From the NCBI GenBank assembly GCA_965649765.1, contig OZ287748.1:34658001-34722000 (forward strand): a stretch of DNA of 64,000 nt, in the 5' to 3' direction. The number at the start of each line of letters is the position of its first letter. The first letter of the stretch is position 1. The notes below the pieces were generated by a model, which had not been told where the DNA came from, did not search any database, and was given only the letters and a program-made list of their open reading frames with translations. Of this stretch, positions 9,358 to 61,077 are shown in pieces. The DNA comes from Bispira polyomma (Eukaryota). The position numbers were made by a program, and so were the translations under genes.

Positions 9358-9388
9358 TGTCTGCCTATTTTGTAATATTTGTATGCAG

Positions 9389-14985: not shown

Positions 14986-15031
14986 TATGCATTTCTATGT
15001 CTCCTTTACCTGGTAGTACTTTGTGTTACAG

Positions 15032-27560: not shown

Positions 27561-27663
27561 ATAGGCTTGGCGGTTGGCGGTTGAAATTTGAATTTTTGTT
27601 GATGCGCTTGGATATTTTACTTTTTTTAGTGTTTTAATTTTACATTGTATTTCCATGTTCACA

Positions 27664-28635
27664 ATGCCAAGTATTAAAGATTTTAGTTGTTCCAAGTGTG
27701 GGGGAAAACATGAAAGGCCAGTCGGTAGAAAATGTGTTTATTTCGTTGCAATACGTGGCTGTCGCCGGCTCCAGTGAAGCTTCTGTCTCCTCTCCAGGCG
27801 ATCTGATTTCTGGACAAATTCTAACGCAGTTACAATCCATGACGGAAATGATGGAGAGGATGGATCAGCGAGTACAGCTCATGGAGGCGGCGATAGCGGG
27901 AGACCTCACCAAAAATCAGGCGGGTAGTAGCTTTCTTTCTATTAATTCAGTGGTCGAACCAAATGTCGAACCTAGTGCCAGTGATAATGTCATTCCTACT
28001 GTCAAATTTCTAAAGAAAAACTTGGCCATTCAGACTCAAGTAGAGCAGAGATTAGTAGAACTTAAAGCTTTGAACGAAAACCCTACCCAAGGTAAGCTTA
28101 AATCCCAGTGAGGCGGGGGTACTGAAGTTCTGGTCAAGAAATTGGTCGAATGGCCTCAAAATTATGTCCTTACTGGTAGTCTTAAAACTCGTCCAAGTTA
28201 TGACGACCTCACTCTGAGCCAGTGGGTCTGTGGTTTTACTAGGATAGTACAAGATGAGAAATCACCGGAAATCCGCGAAATTATGTTGGAATACATGGCC
28301 AACTTGATGGAGGACTCCCAGGATTTTTCCTGGGAGTCAGCCAAAGCTTGTCACGCCGTAATACTCTCCACTATGGAAATGGACAAGCTCAAGTGGACAG
28401 AAGTTGACAAAATTCATCGTTTAAGAAGGGCGCACGCCCAAAGGCACAGTGTTGGTAGTAGCAGTCAGGGGAGTAGCAAAAATAGTGCTAAGTCATCTGC
28501 AAATTCTTTCAAGAAGACACGTGCAAGCATCAAAACAACCATAAGACTGGCACTACATATTTCTGACATGTGTGTGAAGGGTGCGGGGGTAACCACAAGA
28601 ACTCGACTTGTCATAAGAAGGGTTAAAAAAACTAA
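27664..28635 (+). pseudogene. gag ORF1
   Basis: MPSIKDFSCSKCGGKHERPVGRKC; GKLKSQ*GG; WPQNY..YDDL..FSWESAKACHA; CEGCGGNHKNSTC; ends AAA AAC TAA. Confidence 0.88.
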
Positions 28636-28917
28636 GGGGCCACTGCAGTAATGCAGTGGGCGAAAAAGATAGAAAGTGAGTTCTCAGTCGCACTGTATAT
28701 AATAAGGATTTCGATTCATTTCACTTGTTTGACAAGTCGGTGATTAAAAAGATGTGTACATATAATAGAGGTATAGCAAGTAAACATAGTTACAGCGAAG
28801 TCGTGGTCAAACCGCGTAGTAGCAGTAAATGTGTAGAAAATTGTGTGTCAAAAGGTGTACATAAAAATACCAGTATCAATGTAAATGTATTGAAAGAAAA
28901 ATTAGGGGGCAAAGAAA

Positions 28918-30957
28918 GTGCTCTCTAGACATGCAAACAAAGCAACAGTGGGGGCGATCAGAGCTAGGCAAGCACACCAGGTAAGAGGGAATATAATACA
29001 CCCTATTGTGAAAGCTCGGGCTCCTGTACTTGTAAACAGAAATAAAAAGTCTATTGATTTTAACAAAGCAAACAACCAGTGGCAGATTGACACAACTAAC
29101 AGATTTAGTGTGCTTGGTCGGCCTGACACCTCCATTGTTGAGGGCCACAGTGACAACACTGGAATTAAGTGTTTATGGGACCCTATTGTTAGCAACACAA
29201 TGACCAGTGGGGGAGAGTTTAGTCCCAAAGGTAGGGCAAGTATTTCTCGTAAGGGGAGTTCACCCTCACAGGTCAGTATAAAGAAGCAGAACAAAAGGTG
29301 TTTAATCAAGGAAAGCCTTACCAGTGATGGATGTTTATTCAATTCCAAACAAAAGCAGAATAAGTGTGAATTGTTGAAAAAAGCAAAAACAAATGAAACC
29401 CACATCAAATGGCGTGAACAAAACAAGGTCCACTATGGTTTTATCCCTTTGAATACCTTGGGTACAAAAATATGGGACACTAGTTCAGAAAATCTGGGTA
29501 CTGACATTTTTAAAATGCACAAATTGCTGCGAAAAGATGGTAGGCAAAATTTTAAAGGTCTCCAATTACCAGTAAAATCTCAGCTTCACCCTGATAGGTG
29601 GAAACAGTATTTGAGCAAATATTGGGATTGGCAGTTACCTCTACTCATTAAATATGGGTTTCCTCTTGACGTATGTCGGGATAGTATTAGGCAATCAAAA
29701 TGGTCTAATCATAAATCCGCATTGGAATTTCCCGAACACGTCGATTTCTTTTTGAAGGAAGAATGCGACTTTGGTGCAATGCTTGGGCCATATATGGACC
29801 CTACAATCAAATATTTGCATTTCTCACCAATGATGACACAAGAAAAAACAACCTTGAGTAAAAGGTGGGTCATCGTTCATCTGAGCTGGCCGAAGGGCAA
29901 CTCAGTTAACGCTGGTGCTTCACCCACTACCTACTTGGGTACAGATTTTATACTGTCTTATCCTTCAATAGATCACTTAACAAATGAGATATTAAAACTG
30001 GGAAGGGGTTGTAAAATATTCAAAATTGACATTAGTAGGGCGTTTCGCCGTGTACCTATTGACCCTGGGGACATTGATTTGTTAGGCCTGAAGTGGGATT
30101 CTTACTATATAGATAAGTCAATCCCGTTCAGTTATCAGAACGGGAGTACTATCTTTCAGAGAATTTCAGATGCTGTAAGATACATAATGTGCTCTGAAGG
30201 TCATAATGTCCACAATTATTTGGATGATTTTTTATGCATCTTGCTTCCAGGTCAAATTGACAAAATTTATACACGTTTACAGGTACTACTTTCGGAACTA
30301 GGACTGACAGTCAGCAAAAAGAAATTAGTCCTTCCTAATACCGTTGTTATATGCCTGGGTATCAGTATTGATACGGTTAAATTTACTACCTCGATTCCTA
30401 GTGAAAAATCGCAAGAAATTAAGAATATCTGTGTCAGATGGAGAAGTAAAAAATCTTGTACCAAAAAAGAGCTTCAGTCTTTGCTAGGTTCTTTATTGTA
30501 TGTAGCAAAATGTATCAGATATGCAAGAGTATATTTAAATCGAATGCTCGCATTATTGAGAGACAACCATAACAAAACTAGATTTCCTCTGACGGAAGAG
30601 TTTACAAGAGACCTTAGGTGGTTTATAACGTTTATAAATCAATTTAATGGAGTTTCTTTTTTCAATCATAAGCCTGTGGACGCAAAAAATTGAGTTAGAT
30701 GCCTGCCTAACAGGCATGGGAGGCATATATAAAAACCAAGTATATAAACTTTCAGTCCCTACCCATATGTCTCATAATAATATTGCAGCACTTGAAATGC
30801 TCAATATATTGGTAGCTCTAAAATTGTGGGCGGAGGCCTGGCGGGGATTCCGAGTATTGTTTAAGTGCGACAACCAGGCGGTGGTTAGTGTCCTTGAAAC
30901 AAGGCGAACAAAAGATCCAATACTTGCTACGTATACTCGCAACATATATATGTGGAT
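28918..30957 (+). pseudogene. pol: RT intact across a 591-aa frame; RNase H frameshifted near 30690 and truncated
   Basis: KIDISRAFRRVPIDP, IPFSYQNGSTIFQR, YLDDF, KELQSLLG; then LDACLTGMGG, LEMLN and CDNQAVV. Confidence 0.95.
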
Positions 30958-35643: not shown

Positions 35644-37033
35644 ATGGCGACTGCTCAACAGGATAATAATCAAAAGACTTCTGTGTTTTGTAAACGAGAG
35701 ACCAGAAAACTCGCATTGTTTAAAAACCCGACTTCCACAAAAGTTGGTAAGGAGTGTGATCGGCGTGAGGTGGGTCATCAAGAGACACCCTCCAAGGAGA
35801 GTGAACCGTCACATCGCCGTACTCACTCCAGCAAAAGCAATGACGCCATATTAAGCTCTGTCCTGGCTTCAGTGCAGAACCAACTGGTGTCATTAGAACA
35901 GATGGTTATAAGGCCTCTCTGCGAAAGTGGACACTCCTCGTTTGCGTGAGCCTGAGATTACCTCGGCCCCGAGAGTTGAGGCAGATGACCAAGAGCCCCT
36001 GTTTAACACGGGTGCAGTACTGACTAGTCCTTCTTCTAGGTATTCCAAGACATTTGAAGACACAGCAGTTCTTCTGCAGGACACGGTGAAAGCGAAGAAA
36101 ACTCCAGTCAAGAACAAGAAGCACAAGTTGACTTGAGAATGAGGATCTCGCCATGGGATGAGATCTCGCCTCTCACATATCAGGGTTGGCCCCAATACAA
36201 CCTCTCATGGGGAGTGGGAACTGGCAGCAACCAAACCGGCGGCCTGTACAGATACAACAGCCACACAACCCAACGTGTACTGCCACAGCTAGTGATGACA
36301 GGAAACGTGCTTTGGAGATGGACCCTGATGGCCCCACCACACTGGACTCCCTGAGATCTAATCCAATGGTGAAGGTCCTGGTGGATGAGTGGATTGCTGC
36401 ACTTGAGGCTTGTGTCAAACTGAAGATTGGGAAAGGTGGGCGGCGTCGCAAAAGCGGCAGATATAACACAACTGAGACTGCCTCCTCCCACATGAGATGA
36501 CCCAATGAGGCCTGGTTAATTGGGCCAAATAGGAAAAGAAGACAGACTTATGACCACTTGACAATGGGTAATTTTGTAATCGGCTTAGTTAAAAACATAT
36601 TAGACACACCTGAGCCCATCACTAGTAGGGCGATGCTGACTGAGATGGGCGAGACAATCAAACTTAGTGAGAATTTTTCCTGGAACATCGAGAGAGGGGC
36701 GTTTGCTGTCAGCATGCACCAATTCGATGATGGCTCTATTAACTGGACGGACACTCGCATCTTGGGGGACAACATGTTAATTTATTCCCAAACTGCAGCA
36801 GATCTGTGACCCTTCCTAAGACTACCCTTGTGGCAACAACTTCCACTACCAGTAAGAAGGTTGCGTGTAAATGGTGGAAAGAGGGCTCATGCTCTCATTC
36901 CAGTGACCACCAAGACAGTTCTGGACAGACTTTGTTTAGGCACATTTGCTACTACTGTTTTAAGGTCTTAAAACGGGCAAATAACCATACCGAGGCAGAA
37001 TGCCAAAACAAGAAGAAATCTACTACTGAATAG
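35644..37033 (+). pseudogene. gag ORF1, family B
   Basis: Fragments ending in CKWWKEGSCSHSSDH...HICYYCFKVLKRANNHTEAEC zinc fingers. Confidence 0.85.
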
Positions 37034-37040
37034 GACTAGC

Positions 37041-39126
37041 ATGACTGTACTGATTCATCACACCATGACTCTAATTTACTTAAGACTAGTGGTGGCGGGT
37101 GTTCTGTTTACACAACAGCCTCATCTCGTAGGGGGGTGGGGGGGGGGAGGCACGAGACTATCAATAGTTGACTCTTACAATTTAATTTCTAGCATGCATG
37201 GCTCTTATAACAACCTTAAAGACTTGAAAGTGAGTGTGTTTGTAGGCACTCCCCTTTTTAGACTTTGCACCCCTGAATGTGTCAGACATAACATGTGTTT
37301 CTGTAATAGTGCGGGTTCTCAACTCGTAGTTAATGATCCTCGAGATCAGATATCACAAGACACTTGTTGGGAGAGCCGGCCTCCCGTACACCAGGGTGTA
37401 GAAAAGAAAGTTAAGTTTAAAAATAAAGTTCCATTCAATAGAAAGTTTGGTTTTGTAGCTAGTGATACTTTGGCTATAAATGCCCCAGAGGGGCCTCAAG
37501 TTGATATTGATAGTTTAGAACATTATTTGTACATGGCAGACCAAATCAAGGACTCGGGTGTCCCCAACTATAAGGGTTGCAGATTTCCCCTTCCTTCAGC
37601 CTTTATTGGCAAGGTTGGAACGAGTATAGAAATGGTTATCATGATCAGAGGTTGTTTGACTATGTCAAATATGTTTTTCCATTGGGTGTAGCCCCCAATC
37701 ACCATATTAGCAGCACTGCCTCCGAGAATCATCACTCTGCGAAGTGTGAAATCAAAGCCATTGAAAAATACATTTCAATTAAATTTATAGAAGGAGCCTT
37801 ATTAGCCCCTTTCAAAATATTTTCCATTCGGATTTTACTTGGGCCCCCCTCAGGACCAGGAATAAAGATGGGGGCTCTTTTGTAGATATCTCATATGGGA
37901 ACACCTCAGTCAACCAAGCCATGTGCTGAGAAACCTATGATGGTAGTCAGTTTACATTAGTTATCCCCCACATTAATGATTTAATTCCTCAACTCACCCA
38001 GTTAGGTGATAAGGCCAGGTTATTTAAGGCTGACATTTCTAGAGCATTCCGTAACATCAGGATGGACCCTGTGGATGCTATTCATCTGGGCATCTCATGG
38101 GATGGCAGGTACTATCTGGATTGAAATTTGCCCTTCGGGGCTGTCCATGGCACTTCTATCTTCCAGCGATGCACAGATTTCATAAGATATATTAGAGTTT
38201 ACATGGTTACACAGTGTACAACTACATAGATGATATTTACGCAGTTTTGCATCAGGATCAGACACAAGCTGCTTTTGAAACTCTACTGGCAGTGATTAAA
38301 TCCTTAGGTTTTCCCCTCAACCCCAAGAAAATTGTTATTCCCACTACATGTATTACCATTATGAGCATACAAATTGATGTGACCAAACGAGAGTTCAGTA
38401 TTTCCCCTGAGAAAATAGAGGACATTATGACCACTTGTAAAACTAGCATTATAGCCCACCAGGTAACTAATTAATCACTACAATCACTATTAGGTAAGCT
38501 TCTGTACATATCCAAATGTGTCCCAGGTTCTCGAGTCATTATTAACAGGCTTCTGGCCTTACTGAGACTTAATAAAGATCAATGGGTTTTCCCTGCCGAT
38601 GAGGCATATCGAGAGGACATTTTATGGTTCATAGTCTTTTTACAGCAGTTTAACGGTATAGCGTATTATAAAAGTGAATCTCGCCCAGACGAGGTGTTTG
38701 TAGATGCAACTTTGACAAGGCTGAGGGGTGTGGAAAGACCACGTGTACTCGGTGGCCATTGCCCCACCCATATTAAACATTCTATCCATCAGCCACTATG
38801 AAATGTATAACGTCTTGGTGGCTCTAAGGTTGTGGGGTCCACAATGGCATAATTCAGATATTCATATTCGTTGTGATAATGAAAGTGCAATCAATGTAAT
38901 TACTACTGGTAAAACCAGAGACTCCTTTTTGGCCCTAGTTCTTTGGAATTTGTAGCTTATATTAGCAAAATACAATATAAAACTCATAGTATCACACATA
39001 CCAGGTAAACTTAATCAGACAGCTGACAAGCTGTCTCGTTCAAGTCAAAGTCAAGTCAGGAATGATTTTACTGACAGTGTCATAGAAAATGTACATCTGA
39101 ACATGATGTTTTTGTTTGATTTGTAA
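37041..39126 (+). pseudogene. pol: RT plus RNase H
   Basis: ENHHSA, KADISRAFRNIRMDP, LPFG, YIDD, VDATL, EMYN, CDNES and NQTADKLSR, with many shifts. Confidence 0.9.
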
Positions 39127-39132
39127 TTGTAG

Positions 39133-40094
39133 GCATGTCACCCCACTTGTTACCTATGTTGGATGCAGCTATGCAGAGATCCCTGCATGCTATACAAACC
39201 AGTACCCAGAGACAGTACAAAAATCAGTTTAGACTGTTTGTGGCATTTAATATTGTTTTTACCAGATTCATGATTGTGGGTCCGAGGCGACCATGTTAAT
39301 GTTTATAGAGTTTCTAGCATCACAAAGTGTAACATATGGGGTGGTCTTTAACTATATCTCTGCAGTGAAATTCTTTTTCATTAAATATTCCTTGCCCCAT
39401 ATGGTGTTTAAGGCACCAATGGTTAAAAAGGGCCTCAAGTCCCTCATGCACACAGGCCCTCGTACCATGAGAACCAAAGGTATTTTTTCCTTCCAGCAGT
39501 TGAATGAAATCTCACGTCTGTGCAACGTGTGTGAGAGTTCACTCACATATCTAACAGCCTTTTTAGTGGCCTTCTACAGCTTTCTCAGAATTTCCAGTAT
39601 TTCACCAAGCTCCAGTACACAGTATGACCCCACCAGGAATATTTGTAGGGAGGATGTCACATTTCAATACCCAGGTGCCCACATAGCATTAAAATGGACC
39701 AAAAATTTGCAGGGCACCAAGCCAACCTCACATTATAAAGTTACCCTGTGTAGAGAACCCCCTGATGTGCCCAGTTCGGGCCCTCAAGTCACTGCTTGAT
39801 AAGTTTAAAGCACCCCAAGATCCTCTATTCTTGATCGATCATTATGAGATATTGACGCAGTCTTTGCTTAGATGCAGTTTAGCCTCATTCTTGAGAATCA
39901 TGGAAGTGCCACTTTTAGGGCACGGTTTCCGTACCTTTCGTTGTTATGCATAGCATGGGAATGTAGATATGGATAGCATTCGTATGCATGGTATATGGAG
40001 GAGTAATGCAGTCTGGTCTTACACCAGCTCCAACACTTCTCAAACCAACACATTCTCTCTCACTTTTCAACATTTGGTAAACTCTTCTACATAG
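39133..40094 (+). pseudogene. Tyrosine recombinase, frameshifted
   Basis: FYSFLRISSI, KWTK, MCPVRAL, (H>R)TFR and HGIWRSNAVWSY. Confidence 0.88.
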
Positions 40095-42873
40095 ATGCTT
40101 TTTTTGGGCTTGGGCTATCAATTCCCCATTTTGTAAACTTATGTTATGACTAACTTTTAGAAATTAATAAAATTGATTCCCAAGTCGTTAACTCCCATCT
40201 TTTCAATTCTCATTTATTTCCTGGACGAGATTCTGACTGAATAATAATATATGTCACTGAGAGACATGGTGGTTGGAAATACGTGCCAAGACCTTCAACT
40301 GTATTTCATATTTGACTAACAGTACATTTATTTTTACATCAGTAAAACCTCCACTTTCCAAGATCTGGAACAGCTGCAAGGATATACAAAACAATCTATG
40401 TACTGTTATTTATGTCAAAGTTATTTTTAGCTATTCAGTCATTGCATTATGTAGTCACTATTGCTTATCATTTATTTTACTTCTTAGATATTTTAAAATA
40501 GTAGCTTTAAAGTTTATGAGGCTTTTCATACAATCGCTTCCATCTTTATTGTTTTTATAAACCTCATACGCTGGTAAACAAGATTCATTCCTGGTTCAGG
40601 TGTTCTTATTTAAGTTAACCTGATATTCTCATGTTATCATAGCTCAATCTATTCCTGTGTTTAAAAGTAATGTTGTCAATCCTATAATGTACTCATGTAC
40701 CATAAAAGTTGATTGCATCATATTAATTATTTCTGGTTTTCAGATTTATGTAAAAAAAAAAACCCATACAAATTCAATAGCTCAACATGTGTTGTACATC
40801 ACACATTGTCAATATTTCTGTACCTTATTGATATATCAATTTTTTACCTGAGTTTGATTTCTATATATCCATTGAATCCATAATTCTGGGTGTCAGTTAC
40901 AATATGTGATTTTGATGATAGAATGATATATTTTGTTTTACAGATTTTTTTTAAAGTTTTTATTGTCATAACATGTCTTTGTAGTCAATGCGATATTAGA
41001 GTCCCAGGTTTTTTTATGATATACCATCGATAGAAACAGAATGCTTCTGTATAGCCTTCCTGAAGGCTTGAGTTTTGTCAAAACCTGTGTTCTGTGTTCA
41101 ACAATTTTAGAAACATGCACATTTAACATGCACATTTAATTTAGCAGAAAGCACTATTAACATCCAAATATTACTCTTGTTGCAGAATACAAGTATCATA
41201 AGGGGAAATTATGCATGCATAGTTGTGGCACTTAGAAAAATTTGTAGAAACAAAGTAAATCCACTAACTCATTAGCTTTACACATCTATTAGCTCAACGT
41301 TATATAGGAATTTAACTATTTATCATTTCAGTTTAAGGTTTACTTAAATGTTTAACTATAACTTCGTCAGCTTCTGTGGATTGGGCTGTATACTGTGTGC
41401 ACATAGGTGAATTTAATTCCAAGCCCATAATCATATAATCTTTATTAGTGAGGAAACCTTGGGATAAAATTTTACATTGTGAAGCTGTATCCCCAATAAC
41501 CAACAACAGATGATCATTGACTCGTGTTGAATATTTTGAAACAAGAAGTAATTAGTTCAGTGTGGAGTTACAGTCTGAATAGGTACTGCTGTAGAGAAAT
41601 AGTAAAAACTTGCAATATGAGTTACAGTATAACTTTCAGTTGCTTTTTTTGTAACATAAAACTCGATGCTTAAGATAATAAAATGATGACCTGAATAGAT
41701 GCCAGAACTTTGTATATTTGAACTGACAAGAGATATTGGAGATGAACACTTGTTTCCAACATAACCTATCTTCAAAGTACACACAATAAGTTACAGTAAT
41801 AGACGTTACTTACAGCTAGTGCTTCCTTTTCTGCACATTTCTGTAGTGTGTGTAAACAAATGTGCTTATTATTGTGGATCTATTTATGAAAATATTTGAA
41901 TTATTTTTAATATTGAGATCAAAATTGTCTTGGGCTGGTCTTCTATTTTTATTTAAGTGTCAGAAAAAAATCAATGACACAAAAAAATAAATATACAAAC
42001 AAATCTGTAGACATTACTGTGTTGACAACAAACCATCATCGATTTTCTCACCCTATTATGTGAAAATATACTTTCGTTGCAGCCAGGAAAGCTCTTTGAA
42101 TAATAATAAAGGGAGGAGTAAATATGGGGTTAATAGGGAGAATTCACCAAGGAGACAGTGATTTGCATTGTGATGGTGGGCTGAGTAGGTTACCCACTGG
42201 GAGATGCTGTATTTTGGGTGCTACAGATAATATGTCAATGCTTGTGGCAGGACAATATATAAAGATATTTCATCTTCAAGAGGTTGTACAGAATTTGTAA
42301 GATTTCTCGGATAAGCAGATATAAGATGTCTGTAAAGTTTTAACAAGAGTATCGAACTAGGTGGGTCAATTGTAAATACTGATAATTACCAGTAGTCATT
42401 AAATAAAGAAAATTACTATTTTATAATTTCATTTAATTATTCCATGTATATTAAATTTTAATGGTTATTAAATGGCTGCTAGGATATTATTTTTCATTTG
42501 GCCTGCAAAATCTAGGATGAACCATTCGGATTGGTTCAAGAGAACCTTTGTATGACATTTTACTTTATTTTATGATATGTTGGTGTTATATAGTTCATTA
42601 TTGCCATGCACCTTTCTGTGAAAGAAATTTTAACTGCTAAAATATTGGTGGGCTGACGCCTATGCGGCAGCCCCCTCAGTTCTGGTGGCAGGTCACTGGG
42701 GGGCCAATTAGGCCACCTGGGGTCATGAGGGCAAGTATAAAAGGGTTTGCCGCCAATAGGCGCCATCATTAATTTAAAAAACTTTGCTGGAACAAGAGTG
42801 TTTTACAACTGGGCCTTTACTACCCCTACTATTGTTTTTAAACCTCATTTTAAATTATACATTATCTGTGATT

Positions 42874-43781
42874 ATGCCTAATAAGGAATATCCGTGTAGT
42901 GTATGTTCTGGCAGACATGAACAGCCGGTTGGGAAAAAATGTCGTTATAGCTTGGTAGACAGCGTCGCTGATGAAGTGGCTACCGTCGGTCCTGCTACTC
43001 CAGAAGTCTCGGATCCTGTTTCCAGCCTTATACTACAACAACTGGTGGCCATGAATGAGAAGATGGATAGCATGGATCGACGAGTACAAGCTACTGAGGC
43101 GGCGCTGTGCACTCCAAGCGCCAGTAAGGCATGTAATCTTTCTTCTAAAACTGATTCTAGTGCAACCAAGGTTACTGAACCCGTGGCTGAGGCCGTTATA
43201 CCCTCTCTAGAATACTTGCGTAATAATGAAGGTTTGCAATCTCAGGTTGATCAGCGGCTACTGCAATTACAGCAGTTAAACGATATTACCGGAGGTAAAT
43301 TTAAGTCTCAAAGGGGTGGTGCTGAGGCCCCATAAAAAGAAATGTGGACTGGCCACAAAATTTTGTCTTATCTGGCGTCAAAAAAGTTAGACCCACGTAT
43401 GATGACCTTTCTCTGGTTCAGTTTATATCTGGTTTTATTCGTTGCATTCAAGAGCAAAAAGTCCATACTGCCCGAGAGGCTATGTTAGACTATCTCGTGA
43501 ATTTAATGGACAACGCCCATGATTTCTCTTGGGACGCCGCTAAAGCTTCACATGCCATATTGCTTACCAATATGAAACTGGATCGTCTCAATTGGACAGA
43601 CACTGACAAGGTCGACCGGATATGCCGTGCTCATGCACAACGTCATATACCCTCGGCATCTAGTGGGTCTAGCTCTTATAAAACCAGTAGTAATGGTAAA
43701 AACAAAAGTCAAGGTAAATCAAATGGTGTCAATTGTCGTTTCTTCCAGGAAGGAACATGTAACTTTAGTGCTAGCCATCGC
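42874..43781 (+). pseudogene. gag ORF1; 1-nt deletion near 43330 and 3' end deleted
   Basis: MPNKEYPCSVCSGRHEQPVGKKC...GKFKSQRGG, then WPQNF...CRFFQEGTCNFSASH. Confidence 0.9.
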
Positions 43782-46163
43782 ATGTTTGTTTTAATTCTCG
43801 TGTGTGTGTAAAGCCAAGTGTACGACGTTCCTATCGGGACGTGTTGATAAAAAAGACAATGGGTGCCCCAAAAACTTTCAGTAGAAAACCCAGTGTGGGC
43901 GAAATTTGGGAAACAAGCCAAACTGAATCCCAACCAGTTAAAGTTGCTCTCAAAACGTTTGCATATGGGGGTAAAAACGTGGGCTGTTAACCCGTTGTTA
44001 ACAATCAAGTGCTTTCCAAAAATAATATGCCAACCAAGAGCTGTGACCATTTCAATTCAGTTAATATGTCAAGCAAAGGTGACGCCTCCATTGTGAATTC
44101 CAAGTTAAATGGTGTCAAACAAAACCACGAGAGAAAAAGGGCCCCCATTGTTGAAACAATTAAGTCCAGCTCGGTGAAAAACAGCAATCAACCCGGCGAG
44201 TTTCAATTAGCCCTTCATAATAGGTTTGATTGTTTGGATATCCCTTGTGTAGAAACAAATGGTGTTGTCGACGACCAAGGGGGGGGGGGGGGGCAAAGCG
44301 GGTGAAAAGACTGCGCCTCTGCCCAAACAAGCTACTACTAAATTGATTCATTGTGATGATAAGTATGCCTTAGACCTCCCTAAAGGCCCTGACAAAAGAA
44401 AACACTTGAATGATGCACAAGACTGCGTGACTTACAAATTGTGGGACATCCAAAATAGTGGTAAATATGGGTTTATTCCGGTGAGTGATTGGGGTGACCC
44501 TGTGAAAGACCATTCTGGTGACAGGCTAACAATGGATGTGTTCACCATGCACAAATATCTTAAATTGGATGGGCGTCCTAACTATAAAGGACTTCAGATA
44601 CCCGTTAGTACACAACTTAATGCCCCTGTGTGGGCCAAGTATCTAGTAGACTACTGGAATTGGGAGCTTCCTTTATTGATAAAATTCGGGTTCCCCCTTG
44701 ATTGTGATAGAAAACATGAGCTTAAGTCAGAACTTAGTAATCACTCTTCTGCCACCCAGTACCCTGATCATGTGACACACTATCTAACGGAAGAATGTCA
44801 GTTCGGTGCTATGTACGGACCATTTACAGTCCCCCCCATTGGGGATATCCACACTTCACCTTTCATGACCTGACATAAATTGAGCTCGGTTAACTGACGG
44901 GTAATCATAGATCTGAGTTGGCCACAAGGCCATTCGGTTAATCCTGCGGTTTGTTCCAACTCGTAGTTAGACAAAGAACTTGTGCTTACCTACCCGTCTA
45001 TTGATACTATCACCAGTCAAGTCTTGGCCATGGGTAGGGGATCACTCATATTTAAGGCCGACATTAGTCGGGCATTCAGGCACGTGACCATCGATCCGAA
45101 AGACATAAATCTATTAGGTTTGTACTGGGATGGGTATTACATTGATGGGTCACTACCTTTTGGCTATCGACACGGCTTGGTTATTTTCCAGCGAATTTCG
45201 GACGGAATAAGGTACACAATGGAGAGTGAAGGTCACCACATTACCAACTACATCGACGATATCTTATGTTGCTCTATTCCTTCGAAAATACACAAAACAT
45301 ATGACCGATTACAAGCACTGTTAGTAGAGCTGGGTTTAACCCTAAGCCAGAAGAAGCTGGTTCCCCCCTCTACCAGAGTAACGTGCCTGGGCATTGTTAT
45401 AGACACCATACAGTTCACCACCTCCACAGGAGAAAATGGCTGCCATTCAGACTATGTGTAGTAAGTGGGTGACCAAAAAATCTTGTACCAAACGGGAACT
45501 TCAGTGCTTACTTGGTTCCTTACTTTATGTTTCTAAGTGTGTCAAATATTCACGTTTTTTCTTGAATCGAATGTTGCAACTCCTTAGAAGCAATCATAAC
45601 AGTAAAACCATGAAAATCACCCCCGAGTTTCGCAGAAATCTGAACTGGTTTGTGGCGTTCCTCAATAAGCATAATGGGGTAACCTTTTTTCACCATGTCC
45701 CCACTACTGCCACCATAGAATTAGATACCTGTCTCACTGGTATGGGTGGAGTATATGGGCAGCAAGTTTATTTTCTCCCCATACCTGCCTCCATGCAGAA
45801 TCAAAACATCGCCTCATTGGAAATGTTAAACATATATGTTGCTTTAAGGTTGTGGGTTGAACAGTGGGAGGGTCAAAAGATACTCATAAAGTGTGATAAC
45901 CAGGCTGTGGTTAGTGTCCTCACCCATGGTAGAACTCGTGACTGTGAGTTGGCTCTCTACTCACGCAATATATTTATGTTGGCCAGTCAGTTTGACGTTA
46001 AGCTAAAAGTCATACATATTCTAGGTGAGAACAACACTGCTGCAGATTTGCTGTCCCGTTGGACTAACTCAGTAAAGGATAATGTTCTCTTGCAGGAGCT
46101 GGTGGGCTTGCCTCAGTGGTGTCCAGTCTCAAAACTACTTATTGCTCAATCATGAAATTTAAT
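43782..46163 (+). pseudogene. pol: RT plus RNase H, with stops and frameshifts
   Basis: KADISRAFRHV, LPFGYRHG, YIDD, LDTCL, LEMLN, CDNQ and NTAADLLSR. Confidence 0.95.
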
Positions 46164-46202
46164 GTATATATGTTGTTCTCCTGCCAGTGTTCTGTTTTAC
46201 AG

Positions 46203-47194
46203 ATAGAGATCTCCTGCAACAGTTATTATACAAAAATGCAACCAAGAAACTGCACCTGGCTTTCTGCAGATCAACTGACAGGTCCTACACAGCCATGCAA
46301 AGGCTGTATTTGGCTTATGCCTCTTTCATGAATCTGCCTTTTGACCAGGTGACAGTTTTTGACTTACTTGCCTTTTTAGAACTGTTGCAACACAATTCTG
46401 TAAAACCAGCCCATATGGCAAACTATCTATCTGCCATTAAGGCTAAATGTATTGTTTATAATGTTCCCTCAAATGCCTTCAGTGACCCACGCATTGCCTA
46501 TTACCAAAAGGCGGTACAGCTAGCTGCCCCCCTTCATGTTAAGCTAAAGAAAATTATTGACATACCCACTTTAACTCATATTGTTAAAATTTCTCTCACT
46601 ACTTATATGGGTGTGATGTTTAAAGCCGTTTACCTTGTCAGCTATTTTTCTTTTTTACGCTTGTCGAATCTAGTCCCCCATTCTGCTTTGCAGTTCTCAC
46701 CTCTTAAGCATCTGGCTAGGGCCGAAGTTATGATTCACAAGGATAAAGCTGTGCTCCTAGTGAAATGGCCAAAGACCATGCAAAGCAACAATCAAATCAA
46801 ATTAATCACTATTCCTAGGCTTTCGGGCTCCCCTCTCTGCCTGGTGAGGTCACTGGAGGACATTTTGCTGCTAACCTCCCCTGAGCCTAACTCCCCGTTG
46901 TTCCAATTCAAGGTTAATGGCAAGTGGTTGCCTCTAACTGATACTCGAGTGCGTCAGCATTTTAAAGATATCCTTGCTAGGTTGCAGCTAAAACATTCTG
47001 GCCTTACCTTTCACGCTTTCCGTCGTTCAGGTGCCACTTTTGCTTTCAATCATAATGTCAGCATTCAAAATATTCAAAATCATGGCACCTGGACGTCGGA
47101 CTGCGTGTGGAGGTACGTCACAGACTCGGTGGATGCTGGCCACCAAGTGGCTGACACCTTCAAACAGCATCTTTCCACTACTTCTTCCTCCTAA
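46203..47194 (+). CDS. Tyrosine recombinase, uninterrupted frame (probably exon 2 of a spliced Gag-YR mRNA)
   Basis: Open frame with FLRLSNL (R), KWPKT (K), HAFRR (HxxR) and HGTWTSDCVWRY (Y); preceded by the acceptor TCTGTTTTACAG. Confidence 0.88.
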
Positions 47195-50100
47195 GTCCTA
47201 TTGTTGGGCTTTGGGTGTTTGTAGTTAATAATACCTCATGCGTAACAGTTGAACTATTACGTAATTTCATTAAATTATTGCCTAGTCTAGTCTAAATGTA
47301 ATGTACTACATGCTAAGAATGTTAACCGTACTATCACTTGCACGTGGCACTATTACTTTGACTTTCTATTACTTTATTACTTGTCTGTCAATATCTTTAA
47401 TTTGACACCATTGTATAAAAGTGCAAGGGCTAAAGTTCAAACTCTCAGTCATAATTTATGGTCACCTTACTGTTGCTAATTGCCTACGGGCTGTGTGATT
47501 TCCATAAACAAGTAAATTTGCGTAAGGTGACCTTTAAATCTTTAATTATGTTACATAAAATATTTATGACTTTAAGTGACCTTAAGTCACTTACGTTGCT
47601 ATTTAAATTATAATTTACCTAAGGTGACCTTAAGTCACCCTGTTTAAGTTGTTATATTAAATTATAATTTACCTAAGGTGACCTTAAGTTGCCCCGTTTA
47701 AGGTGACCTTAAGTGTCACGCTGTATTAAAACTTATATGATGCAAGTCATCTTGTACATAGTAGTTTTAACACTTAGATTAACATAATAAATATTTTACC
47801 GCATTCTGTGTCATTTATATCTTGCCTTCTTGACCTCTGACCCCTCTGGCCTGTCACTCGGGGAAATGATGATCCAAATCATCACAGAAAACTCCCTATA
47901 AAAAGCTCCATTAATTATGGCTACTCACATCTCAGCACGTTTCATATTTAGTTCTCAATATATGTAAGTTGCCTTGGTACATGAATTAATATGATGAACA
48001 ATCTTTTTCCCCAGAAAGTACTCGGAAAGATGTGTTAAATAGTTGTCCATCAGAAAAACATCACCACACTAAAATCCCTTGCGTGCCACAGAAGTAGAAA
48101 ATGGAACAAACAGCATTCCATGCTGTGATCTTCTTACTCTACAAAAGGACACTAATGCTAAATGAAGGCCACTAAGAGGTCATATTGCAAACCAATAGTG
48201 ACTGCACAATATGCAGTAAATTGTTTATCTTGTGTTTGATATTCACAGTCCATAGGAAATGTGATGTTACTACTACAGTATATCCATAGCCAATAAAATG
48301 GGTATTTGTCTACCACTGGCAAAATTTGTTATCATCTCACTCCCCCATGGCATCCCTTAAGGTTTTTTGTTTGGCCCTCTCCTCTTCACCATGTTCAACA
48401 CTCCCCTTTGTAAATCTCTTAGTTTAGCGTCACTTATCAAGAATTATTCCCATGTTACAGGATTTTGTCATCCACATATTTACTACCATCACTTGTCTGA
48501 ATATAAAAATCTGCAACCTGATATCTGATTTTACTTATTACTTAAAAGATACAATGGCTCCTAATTCCCAGTTATCTTTAAAATCCATGTCAGTACTTTC
48601 AATGTTGTGGTCCTTCACCAGCGCTCTACCCTACTATCTTTAGCAACGTCAACAGACCAAACAACTCTCTGTTTCTTTTGTTAGACCCGACAGATGGACT
48701 GGAGTTAGGGCTTTTTAAAGACTGTCCCAATGTTATGGAACAAAAACATCCCAGTTGAGCCCAGATCACAAGAAGCACTTTTTGATTTAGGAGAAAAAGT
48801 AAATCCTATCTTTTAAAGCTTGCTGAACGACCCTTAATTGTTTTGTACTCACATGCTACTAAAATAAAATTAAAATAATTACAATTTAAAGATGGTCGTT
48901 TAGCTACCAATTTTGATCGGTATCTACGAACCTTTATTATAATTATGTCCCATCTTTTTGATTGGCTCCAGATTGTATCATACACATTCTAGTCACAATG
49001 TAATTACCAGGAAGTAAAGCATTTGAAGGCATATGTCATATAAGTATTATGCACATAATACTATGGCAGCAAAGTGACTGAATATCGACAGAATGACAAT
49101 TGTACCTTTTTTGTCTATCTAAAGTCTACAAAGTATTGCTTGACATCTTAGAAACATTGTAACATAATTGCATGATGTTCATTTTTTTCCAGAGAGATAT
49201 AAATCAATACCATGATAACCGACCAAAGCTATACATATAAAGGTGATGACCCAGCGTAAAGTGGTACTTATGACATTATTTAAGTTTAATATTGAGTGAC
49301 TTTTTGCATCTTAGCTTTCATAACAAACAGCTGTCCGTACAGGTATTATGCACATTATTAGCAATAAAGTTTTAAATTTCTATGGATTGATCGGTGGCAC
49401 AATTTATCATAATGCAAATGTTATTAGAATTAGTTTTTTTTTCTAAAAAGAATTTTTTGTTTGTTTCTGGAATCATTGGAAATTGATTATCTTTTCATTG
49501 CATATTTAATGATTAATAGAATGTGCCCCAAAAAGAGTTCCTATCAACAGAACTCCTTTTACTCCTTTATGTCTGATAAAAGTCTATTAAAGTGATATGA
49601 TAGATGCTGCCAAATAGCAATTGCCATTTACCATTTAATTAAAACAGGAGAATAGTGGGCAGAACTTAAAAGAAGGATTAAAAGAAATATCTTTACAACA
49701 CATTGTAAAAATAATTAACTGAAGCCTGTAAATGGAGGAAAAAATAAGAACGTAACAAGAACCAGACAACCAGACACTTTTAAGTCAGGGTCAAAATATC
49801 AGTGCAACAACGAAAAGGCACTTATCTGTGTGCTATAATTAAATTACAAGGTAATAATTTTCTGCACCTTTTATCTATTTACTTTTTTCAGGGGTGTATG
49901 TGATTAGTTAATAATGCCCTAAACTTTAGGTTATGATTTTACCCATGTATATTTGTTTGTCACCAAAATGCGAAAAAACTATATGGAATTTGGTGGAGAG
50001 ATGGAGTAAAGGCTAAGGAAGAATCCATCATGTAATGTAATGGGTATAAGTGCAGACCGAATTACTTTTTTTTTGCATTATGGCACCTTGGCAAGCACAC

Positions 50101-54304: not shown

Positions 54305-55125
54305 ACTGGCTCATTGACAAGGAACATGAACCAACAGGGATCTGTCAGTTCAATTCCAAAAATTAGCCCAATAGTTAAATATCCTGGGTGCTGGGTGCAA
54401 TCCACCACATAAATATAGCTGACAAAAACTGACACTTTGTTATCTCTTATAGCCAATGAGTCATAAACAAAGCACAGTGGTTCCTGAATGTGAAAATTGC
54501 CGAATATTATCAGTTGCCTTGGGTTCAGTCATGATAGGGCAGAGCTTGTGTTATCTAAATTTGTTTGGAAGGTCCATTGGTAAGATAACATCTTTGGGCA
54601 AGATGGCGGTCCTGTGTTACTGGGTCCCAACCCCAGTGACAGACTAAATATCATTGGGGACATTGACAAATGGTCATTCCTAAGACTCTCTCTTTAGTTA
54701 GGGGAATGATAGTAACTGATAGATTGCTAGTTGGAGTATTAGCAGTAAAAAAGGCCTTTTTTTTATACATTTATTTCACTATATATTATAATATTACAAT
54801 TATAGACAACAGGAATGTTACAATTATTTACATTTCCAAAACAACATAGATATAACAGTCCAAAAAATACATATATACAGTATATATATATTCGAAAAAT
54901 AAAAAATAGGTTACACACCTGTACATATTCAAGTACTTTTGTATAATACATATGAAATATATGCTCTTAGAAAATAATATTAACTACAAGTACAAATTGA
55001 GAAAACAAGTAAATCGAAATTATTTTTGTCGAAATACATTACATTACCGTTAAAGGGATAAATATATACTACAACTGGTAACTTTCTCAAAAGGTAGAGT
55101 TTTTATACTTAGGTGTATGATCACC

Positions 55126-58100
55126 TTAGATTCCTCCAAAAAGTGATTACCAAAACCGCCATTTTTTATCAAATATATCGGATGCCAAAGTAATTTTAGA
55201 AACATATTTTTCTTCAAAGTATCTTTTTTTATCTGCTTTTAAAGAGAAAAGATATCCAAATTATTTTTTTTTCTTTGAACAACAGTAAATATAATATCTT
55301 GTGGATAAAAGAACAATATTTAAGGGCCAAAATTTTTTATCTGGCGTGCAATACCCGAGAATTTTTGTGCTGTCATCTAACAATACCTTAAAAATTTAAC
55401 TTTCTATAAATCCACTGCTTAGTATTTTCCCAGAGATCTACTACTTTTGAACATTGTACAAAAAGATGGGTTATACTTTCGGGATGCTGTTTACATAGTG
55501 AACACAAGTTACATTCGGCTATTTTAACCTTAAATAAGTATTCTTTAGGATCTAAAATGTTGAATATAGTTTTGTACTGAAACCAAATTAGCGCATTGTC
55601 TACAACAGATTTAAAACAAGCTTTGAATATCCATCTCCATTCTTCATCTAAGTCATTGTGTGTTCCTAGTAGTTGTATCCACTTTGCTTTGCATAAAGGT
55701 AGATTATCATCAATTTGTCAATAAATCTATCATCAATAAAACGATTTACATCTTTTATTGTATTTTTTTAGCAACTTTAGATGTAATAGACAAGCCGGTC
55801 TGATATACAATGTCGAGTTGCCTTTTTTGTATCTGAATATGCATTTTTGTACTAATATTTTGATTGTATAATAATCTACTATATTTGTGTTAAAATTGTA
55901 TTTGTTTTTCAAATCTTCAATAGTTACTACATTCAAATGTGAGTCAATGATATCACCAGTTAAATATACATTGTTCTTAAACCATTTAGGGAAGAAAAGA
56001 GTTTGGTCTGAAATTTGGTTATTGTACCAAAGACATGTTTGTGTGATTTCTGAATTACAGGATATGTTTAGTTTCCTGTATAACAAATGCCAAGTGGTGA
56101 AAACTTCAATCCAAAAGTTGTTTTTAATGTTCTTTACTAACACCATTCCCCACTCCCCACCCATCATTAAGAATTTATGTAGTTTGCCACTTATTTCAGC
56201 AAGTAACTTGTACCACTAAGAACCATTACCCAAAAGGATTCTTCTTATCCATGAAACTTTCAATGCTTGAATAAAATGACGTATGTTGACCATTTTTAAG
56301 CCACCATCAAAGTAATTTTTGCATATTGTATTTCTTTTGATCTTGTCCAGTTTTTTTGTTTCATAGAAATTGAAAAATATTTTGTTGATTTCCCCTACAA
56401 AACTTTCTGGCATTGGTAAAGAGGTAAAAAGATGAATAAATTTGTACAACAAAGTTGTTTTTATCACTGTTATTTTTCCTAATGGAGTGAGTTTTCGGCT
56501 TTGCCATATTTGGATATCTTTTTTAATTGTTTCTGTAGCCTTTTCATAATTTTCTTCTGGCATAGTACTCAAATTTACTAAAAATTCTATTCTTAATAAT
56601 GTAAATTCAGTTTTACCCCAATCCAGTGTTTCAAAGATAATCATTTTTTCTTTTGAATATCTTTTCCTATTTTCCTACCTATCCATATTACTTTGGTCTG
56701 TTCCTTATTCATTTTCAGCCCTGAGAAGTTACCAAAAATCTCAATTGTATTTAAAGCTGATTGTAGAGAGTGCTGGCTTCCATCTAAGATTAAATTGATG
56801 TCATCTGCAAACTGTGTTTAAATTTGGTAGAATTCAGATAAAATCCTACAATATTAGGGTTTATTTTGATTAACATAGAGATAATTTCTGCCCCTATCAA
56901 AAACAAATATGGAGAAAGTGGGTCCCCTTGTCTGCAACCCCTTTGGATTGCTATTTCTTGTAATAAAAAAACACACTGTAAAACATAAGCTTTAATATCA
57001 GTGTTAAACATTTGTACCCATTTGATGAAACTTTCTTTATAGTCAGAGAAAGATAGAGCTTTGTATAAAATACGCCAGGAAATAGAGTCAAAAGCTTTTT
57101 CGAAATCTAAAAGTAGCAAAAGCCCAGAAATATTTTTAGTTTCAGAAATTTGCATAATATCGTATATCAATCGTGTTCTTTCACTCATTTGTCTATCGGG
57201 TATAAAACCTGTTTGAGTTTTAGATATAACTTGATCGAGAGTATGTTTAAATCTATGAGACAAAACTCCTGAAGCTAGTTTATAGATGACACATAGAAGA
57301 GATATTGGACGCCAATTTTTAAGCAAGCTCCTGTTTTTGTTTCCTTTAGGGATACATGTAATTATGCACTTGCGTAGAGTAGTTGATAATTTACCCTTTT
57401 TAAAACAGCAGTTGGTAAAGAAGTACTTTAATTTTCCCCAAAATACTTTTAAAAATTCAGAGTTGATACCATCCAGCCCAGGAGTGTTATTGTTTTTCAT
57501 TCTTTTCAAAACCATTCCCAGATGTTTGTAGAGGTCCTCCCAACTCGGTGTCTTTAATTTTATTCATTTGGATCTTTTCTAAAAGTTGTGCAAGATCCAC
57601 ATGTTTTAATTCACTATCTCTACTTTTGAAAAGGTTTTCATAGTATTTTTATATGGACCATTATTTGGTCTTGGTCCGTACCATAATGATTTTCATTTAT
57701 TTGCAGTTTCTTTATGGTTTTATCTACAAATTTTTACTTTCTGGGTTGCAAAGGAAATTGGAAGGTTTTTCTCCATCAATGAGCCATTGTGTTCGCAATC
57801 TTATAGCTTCTCCTTTGACCCTATCTGCTCCAATACACTCTAATTCTGATTTCTTGTTCAATAATAATTGAACATTACTGCTATGCAATTGCTACATGAT
57901 TCCAAGTTTGTTATGTCCTTAATAAGTAGATTTTCTTTGCGATTTTTTGATTTTTTCAAGAAAGAGGCAAATTTGATTGTTTCTCCTCTTATTCTAAAAA
58001 GAAGAACTTCCAGATAAAGATCCTCATCGATAGTAAAAGAAATATAATCATATTTGGTCATTAAGAATTCTATATTATTAACTGGCAGTGCATACTTATA

Positions 58101-58924
58101 AATCTCCTCTTGTATTATGTTATTTATTAAATTTACATTTTTTAGTAAACTATTGTTAAATTTCCAAAACCCTTTACCGACTTTAAATTTGTTTAGTTCA
58201 ATCTCTGGACTTATAATAGAATGGTTTGACCGATAACCTGGTTTAATATCACATGTATTTACTATATCAGTCAATGCATTTGACACCAAAAAAAAGTCCA
58301 GTCTGGCCTGCTTCAGCGGATTTTGTTTTTTCCAGGTATACTTATGACTAGTTGGGTGAAGGTATTGATAGATATCCAACAGCTCCAATTCATTTGACAG
58401 GTTCAAGACAGATGATCTTGCCTTGGGGTTGTTCACATGCTTATAATTATATGTGTCTATTATCGGGTCCAGTACTAAGTTAAAATGTCTGCACAAAAAT
58501 TTGGTAATATGATTTATGCTTTTGCAAACAGATTTTAATTTCTGTAAAAAAATCGAGACAATCTATATTTGGGGCATATAGCGATAGTAAATTTATAATA
58601 CCCACACCTGTTTTAACATTCAGAACAATAAAGTTTCCTTCGTTGTCCATAGTGAAAGAAAGTATTTCAAATCCAAAATTATTATTGAACAATATTGCAA
58701 CTCCTCTCGAGTTTGTTTTTGATCCATTAATATAGCAATTGTTGCCCCACATTTATTTCACTTTTTTTATTAGATCTTTTTTGATACAATGTGTATCCTG
58801 GAAAGATACAATACTAGCTTTAGTTTCTTTGAAGGACATCTCTTCGTTTTTGTAAATTTTGTAAGCCTTGACAGTTTGCGAATAGCATCACGATACTATT
58901 TCCGGAAAAGTTTTTCACTATCAT
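55126..58924 (-). pseudogene. LINE ORF2: AP endonuclease, RT and C-terminal Cys/His region
   Basis: NCQGL, QDTH, SRGVAIL, YAPN, RLDFFL, SNH, WKFNNSLL, PGLDG, NWRPISLL, DFEKAFDS, GCRQGDPLSPYLF and FADD. Confidence 0.95.
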
Positions 58925-59321
58925 AGGAAGTACTCTCTACACTTACAAGTATAAACTTCATTATACAAAGTTTCATTGAACAGTATAGTAATAATGAATA
59001 TGATTGATGGACAATATTGTCTACCGTTTCCTTCAATTCGTCTATCATTCTATATAAATAATTTATTTTAACTAATCTGATTTCACAGAAATAAAAATGA
59101 TAAACAACAACACTAACAACATAACTTATGTACACACAAATATAAAGTAAAAATACTAGTACAAGTCCTTCCTCAGGTAAGACGCCCATTATTAGTTTTT
59201 TACTGAATCACTTTTCTATACAAGATACTGTTTTAATCTACAAAGTAACCCTCTTTTTCTTGTACTTAACAACATACACTATCGAATATACAGATATTCT
59301 ATATTGTGAGAGACTTTAAAA

Positions 59322-59738
59322 ACTAATTTGAATAAATATCTCGGTAAATCCACATACACTACAAGACCACAAACTCCCCCAGCAAGATATTAATCTCTGG
59401 TGTAAGAAGAATCAAAAATAGAATCTAATTTGAATAAATATCTCAGTAAATTCACATACACTACAATAACACAAACTCCACACCAGCAGGATATTACTCT
59501 CTGGTGCAAGAAGAATAAAATATAGAATCTAATATGAATAAATATATCAGTAAATCCACATACACTACAATAACACAAACTCCCCACCAGCAAGATATTA
59601 CTCTCTGATGCAAGAAGAATCAAATATAAAATCTAATTTGAATGAATATCTCGGTAAATCCACATACACTACAATAACACAGACTCTCCACCAGCAAGAT
59701 ATTACTCTCTGGTGCAAGAAGTATCAAATATAGAATCT
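59322..59738. repeat. About 103-bp tandem repeat, four copies, between LINE ORF1 and ORF2
   Basis: Unit CTAATTTGAATAAATATCTCGGTAAATCCACATACACTACAA...CCAGCAAGATATTACTCTCTGGTGCAAGAAGAATCAAATATAGAAT. Confidence 0.95.
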
Positions 59739-59839
59739 ATAGATCCACATTATTATTATTTGCTATTTGTTACAATTGTTTTATCAAATTTTGATTAATT
59801 AAAGATGTTCTATCTAAATCTATAAGGTTTTGACAACTA

Positions 59840-60280
59840 TGCCTGTACTTTTGATATATTGAGGACTTCACTGGGCACTTTTCTGATTCAATCAAAATGG
59901 GCTTTTTCAAAGATAATTCCGCCATGATTGCGTGAAACTATAAACACGATATTTGAGAAGTTTTTTTTGCCACATTAAGTCCTTTAAAATGGCACTTCCA
60001 CCCCATTCACCGTCATCACAGTATTCCTTCACCATCTGCCCTTCACCGTCCATGTAATCATAAGCATACAGAATGTGGTCACTCCTTGACGACCTGTCAT
60101 TTTGCAGCACAGCTCTCAGTGATTGGATTGCTTCGGCTTGTGTGTGAATTGGGTACAGGTGACCTTGAAACACACTTCTTTTTATGTGGTGTTAGTCTGA
60201 GTGCAACATGATGTCAAAGGAGAAAGGCTCACCTAAAAATGTAACGTAGTCCCATGGTTTTAGCTCAAAGGCGTCTGTGT
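59840..60280 (-). pseudogene. IMPACT/YigZ (UPF0029)-like domain, probably the C-terminus of LINE ORF1
   Basis: SVFQGH...DHILYAY...YCDDGEWGGSAILKDLM, then after a frameshift NIVFIVSRNHGG. This fits the family pattern SxFxAH / HNxYAY / DDGE / VSRxxGG. Confidence 0.78.
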
Positions 60281-61077
60281 TGAGCTTTGAATTTTCATTC
60301 ATATTTAGATACTTGAAAATAACTTGCTCTATAATTAACAATAATGTAATAACTAGTATAGATCTAACCCCAATGGAAATTAAATTCCAAAAATGTTTCG
60401 ATTCATCACAGCAAGAAAATAAATATGTAATGGTTTTTTCAGCATTTGAACATAAATATTGGAATCATCGTTATGTGTGGTAGTTAAAGTTTTTCTAACC
60501 AAAAAAAAAGGTTAAGTGCCTGTTAAAGTAAGATAAATTGTTGCCAATCACACTTCTAGGACAGCATCTACAATTTGTGACACTTTTTAGTCACCTTTCA
60601 CGTTTATTAGTTGAAAATTACCAGTGTACCAAAAGCAATATGAGAAAAGAACTATTAAAGAAAAGACCGTGATATTAAAAGATCTGTTAAAGATTTTTTC
60701 ATCAGGAAAAATATCTCCACACTAAAATCCCATGTTTAGTAGATCAGTACAAAGTGGAAAAACAGTATTCCGTGCTGTGATCTTCTTACTCTACAAAAAG
60801 ACACTAATTCTACATGAAGGCCACTAAAGGGCTGTAGTGCAAACCTATACTGGCTGCACAATATGCAGGTAATTGTAATTGTTTGGTAATTGTGTTGATG
60901 TGCACAGTCCACAGAGAAATGAGAGTAATACCTCCCAGATGGAATGTTATGGTTTAACTACAGTAGATCTGCAATTAAATGGGGTATTTGCCTACCACTG
61001 GTACATAACGTCATCACATTCCAGTGCCTAATGAATTGTTCTTATCTTACAGCATTTTGTCCTTTCAAATTTACTAC

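Follow-up and report, generated by a model that had tools for sequence, protein, structure and literature searches.

The window analysed here, a 64,000-nucleotide stretch of the Bispira polyomma genome (assembly GCA_965649765.1, contig OZ287748.1, positions 34,658,001 to 34,722,000), contains a decayed IMPACT/YigZ domain (Pfam UPF0029, here termed the ancient domain), and this stretch is confirmed to be the broken 3' end of ORF1 from a 5'-truncated L1/Tx1-like LINE. Comparison with longer copies shows that the full-length ORF1 comprises a coiled coil, an RRM and a CTD, with the fold of human L1 ORF1p, followed in frame by the ancient domain, which has been added to this complete ORF1 and replaces none of it.

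The initial annotation described an intronless decayed frame with four characteristic motifs, lying on the same strand as ORF2 and about 0.9 kb from it, and these features can be located precisely (Table 1). The motifs SVFQGH, HILYAY and DDGE all fall in one minus-strand open frame (60191-59910). An extra base in an A run near 59968 shifts the reading, so that VSRNHGG and the last helix are encoded in another frame. The two in-frame stops of the decayed ORF1 are at 60194-60192 and 59890-59888, its own stop ends at 59837, and the distance from there to the ORF2 ATG at 58924 was measured as 912 bp. The first frame alone matches Pfam PF01205 with 35.7 bits (E 9.3e-9, against a cut-off of 27), and pieces of ORF2 on the same strand match RVT_1 (E 6e-20) and zf-RVT (E 6e-8). 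The ORF1 remnant shows 88% and 72% amino-acid identity to residues 278-428 of the ORF1 of an open family copy, L032. Just the last ~150 codons of ORF1 are retained in the window, and the membership of the domain in ORF1 is therefore deduced from the family copies, not from the window alone. No target-site duplication was found at the ends of the window copy. We observed a short sequence common to both sides of the truncation point (60292/60293); this join arose either by an insertion that removed target sequence or by a template switch that produced a chimera. The window copy is dead and without any of the functions proposed below. Elsewhere in the window (6900-17000, 27600-30700 and 36900-47200) there are several other decayed elements, whose frames resemble RT/RNase H and tyrosine recombinases; by eye these are DIRS/Ngaro-type retrotransposons.

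Table 1. Components of the LINE copy and of its upstream flank (window coordinates).
Feature	Position	Strand	Remarks
3' untranslated region, short A tail at its end (54757)	54757..55139	-	3' end shared by 21 family copies
ORF2 (endonuclease, reverse transcriptase, zf-RVT), split over several frames	55140..58924	-	lower limit approximate
Non-coding ORF1-ORF2 spacer, 912 bp, common to family copies	58925..59836	-	
104-bp tandem repeat x4, within the ORF1-ORF2 spacer	59323..59739	.	copy number differs among family members
Decayed ORF1 3' remnant (end of CTD, linker, ancient domain, stop)	59837..60292	-	two internal stops and one frameshift; 5'-truncated at 60292
IMPACT/YigZ ancient domain (Pfam UPF0029), decayed	59840..60212	-	Pfam E 9e-9
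Piece (~210 bp) of the 3' end of another L1-like ORF2, outside the element	60293..60500	-	78% identity to L134 (ORF2-encoding)

To characterize the element, we searched the genome (1.03 Gb) at the DNA level with the domain region of the window; scoring 40 of the 91 candidates yielded 18 other matching loci, and in 17 of these 18 close relatives the similarity continues colinearly into the same ORF2. Longer family copies reach ~1.5 kb beyond the point corresponding to 60292 and encode an ORF1 of ~430 residues. A 3' end with an A tail is common to the family copies, strings of 13-19 bp are shared by both ends in eight of the 19 copies tested, and in two copies, the full-length L031 (~6.95 kb) and L035, the domain is enclosed within duplications of 11 and 13 bp. 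A tails, target-site duplications and 5' truncation are marks of target-primed retrotransposition. The open ORF2 of a sister family (L089) possesses the Pfam domains Exo_endo_phos, RVT_1 and zf-RVT and is nearest to human L1 ORF2p (E 1e-113, vs E 2e-25 for R2), and on these two grounds we classify the group as L1/Tx1-like. The 3' flanks of the 22 copies compared are mutually unlike, so no fixed target site is evident. In one family, five ORF1 copies are 99.2-99.9% identical, which indicates that this family spread recently.

The AlphaFold model of the L032 ORF1, calculated from a 20-sequence alignment (pLDDT 80), comprises a disordered N-terminus, a long helix (residues 77-130) that agrees with the coiled-coil matches in the ORF1s, an RRM, a CTD and the ancient domain. 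The top Foldseek matches of the model are Yih1 (6bqi, E 2e-6) and human ORF1p (2yko, E 2e-6). According to VIA-align, residues 305-428 superimpose on 2cve with Z 16.0 (rmsd 2.0, 114 aligned) and on 1vi7 with Z 15.0, and the scores against L1 ORF1p are Z 9.6-9.7; for the RRM and CTD, 2w7a gives Z 9.6 (rmsd 2.8, 86 aligned) and 2ldy Z 9.2 (rmsd 6.1, 129 aligned). Pfam detects UPF0029 in all six ORF1s tested (87-94 bits) and Transposase_22 weakly in one of them (E 0.086); it reports no RWD domain in any of the six, the N-terminal part being modelled as coiled coil-RRM-CTD. In the families of the 20-sequence alignment ORF1 terminates a few residues past the ancient domain. The domain thus indeed forms the end of a LINE ORF1, as had been suggested from the window: in the family copies it is the in-frame C-terminus and it travels with ORF2.

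Analysis of the genome-wide distribution of the domain reveals the same linkage. A PF01205 profile search gave 427 candidates, of which 150 were scored, all above the cut-off, and 57 loci were sampled from this list (odd-numbered rows 31-149, minus three already included). A position upstream of ORF2, which the initial annotation proposed to check in genomic copies, was found in 54 of them: at most 7.6 kb downstream there is an EN or RT match on the strand of the domain (in 44, an EN within 3 kb), and the RRM-CTD lies upstream of the domain in 51; the opposite-strand control for the 57 loci gave no EN, one RT and no RRM-CTD match. Neither of the two outcomes that, according to the initial annotation, would refute it (no profile match, no link to ORF2 in other copies) was observed. 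The three loci without an ORF2 match are L081, where an LTR-type insertion follows, L117, with ORF1 only, and L094, with neither flank. The domains of this genome fall into 23 groups at 75% identity, a number that decayed copies may inflate. Among the PF01205 matches we also observed one IMPACT-ORF1 family (rows "109 aa, 1 TAA", e.g. L101, L102 and L106) with a common stop near the end of the profile match, and its domain may be slightly shortened family-wide.

Coding-sequence comparison shows the ancient domain to be under purifying selection between families: in the pairs listed, with 50-70% domain identity, pS is 0.73-0.92 vs a domain pN of 0.18-0.35. Differences within families are few and unskewed, as expected after insertion. 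The mean identity is 39.5% for the ancient domain, 34% for the RRM, 33% for the CTD and 29% for the coiled coil, and 13 of the 16 invariant columns of the 20-sequence ORF1 alignment fall in the ancient domain, but because some of the families were found through the domain itself, its lead over the RRM in conservation is overstated. In order to identify the residues concerned, we compared 140 ORF1 domains with 84 domains from RWD-bearing hosts (picked by similarity to one query) and 11 bacterial domains. In E. coli YigZ numbering, the pocket residues, which bacteria and hosts have in common, are kept in the ORF1 domains as follows: H51 96%, D71 99%, D72 96%, E74 94%, R101 94%, G109 96% and S20 76%. 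For YigZ, a Ser-His-Glu triad has been proposed. The S20 position is occupied by Asn in 17% of the ORF1 domains, and some ORF1 families have DDRE in place of DDGE. The eukaryote-type helix signature G-x-x-R-F-x-x-I is kept at 84-98%, and the Pro insertion after DDGE, present in 11 of 11 bacterial domains, occurs in none of the 140. The DRK motif, a Lys, two Asp and an Arg of the last helix fall from 86-99% in the 84 RWD-bearing hosts to 0-11% in the ORF1 domains. The net charge of the ORF1 ancient domain is about zero, as in the host and bacterial domains. According to the available part of a published account (PMC4503747), the invariant residues of the ancient domain gather on one face and its function is not known.

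The host IMPACT gene is found at a separate locus (G000:C4:58679581-58684929; L150, L151), with one pattern match on contig C4; its RWD exon lies 4 kb upstream of the ancient domain, three GT-AG introns interrupt the ancient domain itself, and in the tree this domain clusters with other hosts and not with the LINE domains. Intron structure and tree grouping rule out that the LINE domain is a recent copy of this gene. With regard to deeper origins, the A1 profile scores 94 bits for Yih1 vs 27 and 19 bits for the bacterial structures, the profile scores of the LINE domains are 103 bits for hosts, 60 for short bacterial proteins and 48 for YigZ and so favour hosts, and in the domain trees the LINE domains branch on the side of the eukaryotes as seen from canonical YigZ. 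The short bacterial proteins (L313-L327) represent a standalone ancient-domain type of ~110-120 residues with eukaryote-type motifs, distinct from YigZ; it was found in about 15 of 401 bacterial genomes searched, and several of its genes adjoin a gene for a predicted lipoprotein-like protein. We also noticed a database protein (P0161) in which three host-type ancient domains follow one another and no RWD domain was seen. In two domain trees (~123 columns; one of them a quick tree of 105 rows) the LINE domains are outside a host clade (support 97-100). When the short bacterial subfamily was included and seven rows, among them the long branch P0181, were dropped, the LINE domains formed one group (99) among unresolved hosts. 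AU tests reject none of three groupings: p is 0.41 for LINE domains with metazoan hosts, 0.26 with the IMPACT of this genome and 0.67 with the short bacterial subfamily, and in the last of these tests the quick unconstrained tree scored below the constrained ones. The capture of a host domain proposed by the initial annotation therefore stands insofar as the domain belongs with the eukaryote-type subfamily and not with canonical YigZ, and is not a recent copy of the intron-containing gene of this genome; the donor is not fixed by phylogeny, as the trees do not separate host IMPACT from a short bacterial donor. We regard one old capture, with host IMPACT as the donor, as probable.

The C-terminal slot of ORF1 is not reserved for the IMPACT domain. 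A genome search with the RRM-CTD of an ORF1 bearing neither domain gave 1126 candidates, of which 150 were scored, and among the best 30 loci the slot holds IMPACT in 17, a NADAR domain in 12 and a deleted remnant in one (L245), with no locus having both. The NADAR-ORF1 loci (L273-L312, e.g. L281 841-2166) carry NADAR at the ORF1 end where others have IMPACT, and Pfam confirms NADAR in all four ORF1s tested (E 1e-28 or better). In 40 further loci, chosen by hand and chiefly for long frames that were not on the IMPACT list, we found 34 NADAR and six IMPACT domains, with RT downstream in 32 of the 34 NADAR loci. In the RRM-CTD tree (73 rows, 128 columns, cut with a profile derived from IMPACT-type ORF1s) all 47 IMPACT rows are on one side of a branch with SH-aLRT 98. 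The RT tree (82 rows) mixes the two types, and a careful RT tree (32 rows) rejects the IMPACT/NADAR split (p-AU 1.1e-6), with 6-7 changes in the bootstrap trees. In two NADAR families (L275 and L287 vs L276 and L303) the ORF2s are 93% identical while the ORF1s have no DNA match, and the similarity starts within the spacer, some hundreds of bases short of ORF2, which is a sign of recent ORF1 exchange. ORF1 types that are clean on the ORF1 tree and scrambled on the RT tree, together with the join in the spacer, allow us to infer that whole ORF1s have been exchanged between ORF2 lineages. In L282 and L307 a NADAR-type ORF1 precedes a non-L1 ORF2 (CR1-like by inspection). The N-terminus of this ORF2 contains a 2A-like motif, GDIETNPGP; 2A peptides in APE-type LINEs are on record in the available part of PMC3708506.

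A profile search of 1.84 billion representatives retrieved 927 proteins at E 1e-30 or better. The best 150 of these comprise 142 with the RRM-CTD and the ancient domain, six with the RRM-CTD alone, most of which stop where the ancient domain would start, and two with the domain alone. In the ESM Atlas the fused region falls into eukaryotic clusters, with Mollusca the commonest (scores 0.90, 0.82 and 0.79), which we take as a lead. One ORF1 relative, from a contig of 1.8 kb, bears the label of a Bacteroidetes MAG protein and is presumably host DNA in a metagenome. The 19 pattern matches in viral contigs include no relative, and the phage collection gave seven weak matches, all unannotated records, the four examined of which resemble ordinary bacterial YigZ. 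In the literature searched, outside whose scope lie Repbase and most subscription papers, we found no IMPACT domain in a LINE ORF1, and none is mentioned in the available parts of PMC4120745 and PMC10294476; the available parts of two PMC5203782 supplements contain no UPF0029, PF01205, NADAR, DUF1768 or YigZ. The IMPACT-ORF1 fusion was thus not found in print, and NADAR-ORF1 is already published: the available part of PMC12477816 reports NADAR in ORF1 of Crassostrea gigas Tx1 LINEs (Repbase families).

What the domain does for the element can be approached by analogy. L1 ORF1p forms a trimer via its coiled coil and coats its own RNA via the RRM-CTD. An ORF1p trimer coating the element RNA would likewise show three ancient domains on the particle. 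A spliced host IMPACT mRNA would probably have provided the domain in one old capture, with the RWD half left out, and later spread among ORF2 lineages would have proceeded via whole-ORF1 exchange across the long spacer. The domain may have a role akin to that of its slot-mate NADAR and maintain the retrotransposition intermediate or counter host defences against it. NADARs of other organisms remove ADP-ribose from bases, and the reversal of ADP-ribosylation on guanine is described in PMC11125620 (available part). We consider it an even chance that ORF1p coats the RNA and presents the domain as an accessory module, an enzyme or a ligand binder, whose universally conserved pocket binds, or acts on, a ligand related to nucleic acid, and that this module processes or shields the nucleic acid of the element. 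The "enzyme" reading is suggested by the conservation and by the analogy with NADAR; sharing a slot with NADAR does not imply the same job, and the available parts of PMC4503747 and PMC10931611 describe an activity of the ancient domain as established in no organism. A bolder version, possible but doubtful, is that the coat-protein slot of mollusc L1-like elements, filled by NADAR or IMPACT, is traded between RT lineages, and that the ancient domain is a hydrolase removing a host-imposed mark or lesion as transposon counter-defence; if this were true, ORF1-IMPACT would be the first handle on the chemistry of the ancient domain.

Several other explanations have to be weighed against an accessory module with an active or ligand-binding pocket. 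The domain, with its ribosomal protein S5 domain 2-like fold, could be without catalytic activity and serve to broaden RNA binding or to arrange the particle, with the pocket preserved as a binding site. Its position directly after the RNA-binding RRM-CTD, the naming of some database matches as "ribosomal protein S5 domain 2-type protein" and the variable position of the putative nucleophile (S/N) speak for this explanation, to which we nonetheless give limited credence: the domain is close to neutral overall, like its host and bacterial counterparts, the best-kept His, Asp, Asp, Glu and Arg look like a set typical of active sites, and NADAR-type and mammalian ORF1s function without the ancient domain. 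The modulation of GCN1-GCN2 put forward by the initial annotation is weakened. An RWD-less copy could tune the host translation stress response by binding GCN2, IMPACT or another RWD protein in trans, or by docking ORF1p on ribosomes, and the domain is of the eukaryote type, with its helix signature retained; according to the available part of PMC13094546 the ancient domain touches the RWD domain intramolecularly in Yih1, as it might in trans. On the other hand, it is the RWD domain, absent from ORF1, to which GCN1 binding has been assigned (PMC10931611, available part). The charged surface residues fixed in RWD-bearing hosts, moreover, are lost. The pocket is equally kept in bacteria, which to our knowledge have neither GCN1 nor GCN2, and we consider this role unlikely.

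The idea of a once-captured passenger that is now folded ballast at the ORF1 end is largely refuted and very improbable. A partly deleted domain in one of 30 loci (L245) and a common stop near the domain end in several copies speak for it, but amino acids are conserved despite saturation at synonymous sites, the pocket residues are near-invariant in 140 proteins, and a useless C-terminal domain would presumably be lost by a single stop codon. A chance IMPACT retrocopy beside a LINE, which the window copy taken alone might suggest, lacking as it does the rest of ORF1 and a target-site duplication, has practically no probability left: it is refuted by the in-frame fusion in many independent families, and stands against the ORF2 linkage and enclosing duplications of the family copies and against a host gene that is separate (contig C4), intron-split, RWD-bearing and grouped with hosts. 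We retain the accessory module as the working model. The ancient domain occurs in all kingdoms without a known activity, and elements that keep its pocket without RWD would give a selectable read-out, retrotransposition; the either/or pairing with NADAR points first to nucleic-acid damage or modification. IMPACT-ORF1 also adds a subtype to the ORF1 classification and provides tree-level evidence of whole-ORF1 exchange among L1-like lineages, and it cautions against reading the hundreds of "IMPACT-domain proteins" of such genomes as an expanded stress regulator; they are ORF1s of transposons.

Among the closest known systems is the Type II (L1-type) ORF1p of human LINE-1 (2yko, 2w7a, 2ldy; PMC4120745, available part), with the same disordered N-terminus, coiled coil, single RRM and CTD, encoded upstream of an EN-RT ORF2. 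IMPACT-ORF1 differs in the extra C-terminal ancient domain of ~125 residues and in a spacer of ~1 kb or more, and a subtype with this domain is absent from the five-type ORF1 scheme as given in the available part of PMC4120745. The Crassostrea gigas Tx1 NADAR-ORF1 is similar in having an ancient enzyme-type domain in an L1/Tx1-like ORF1; the NADAR of the present genome occupies the same post-CTD position as the IMPACT domain and differs in fold and family, while IMPACT, the two-domain alternation and ORF1 exchange are not described in the available part of the C. gigas account (PMC12477816). The esterase-bearing type IV ORF1ps, e.g. ZfL2-1 (PMC3905857, available part), likewise possess a captured enzyme domain within ORF1 in several LINE clades, and transfer of the esterase ORF1 between lineages has been proposed (PMC4120745, available part). 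They belong to other clades, are lipid-directed and lack structural RNA-binding domains (PMC3905857, available part), whereas IMPACT-ORF1 has its RRM-CTD intact. Bacterial YigZ (1vi7, 2cve) shares the fold (Z 15-16) and the pocket, but its canonical form has the Pro insertion after DDGE and a second C-terminal domain, neither of which is found in IMPACT-ORF1. Eukaryotic IMPACT/Yih1 (6bqi) shares with IMPACT-ORF1 an ancient domain that shows every universal motif as well as the eukaryote-type signatures; compared with it, IMPACT-ORF1 has no RWD domain and no introns, has lost the host surface residues, evolves faster and is present in hundreds of copies. The short standalone bacterial subfamily, finally, has the eukaryote-type motifs in common with IMPACT-ORF1.
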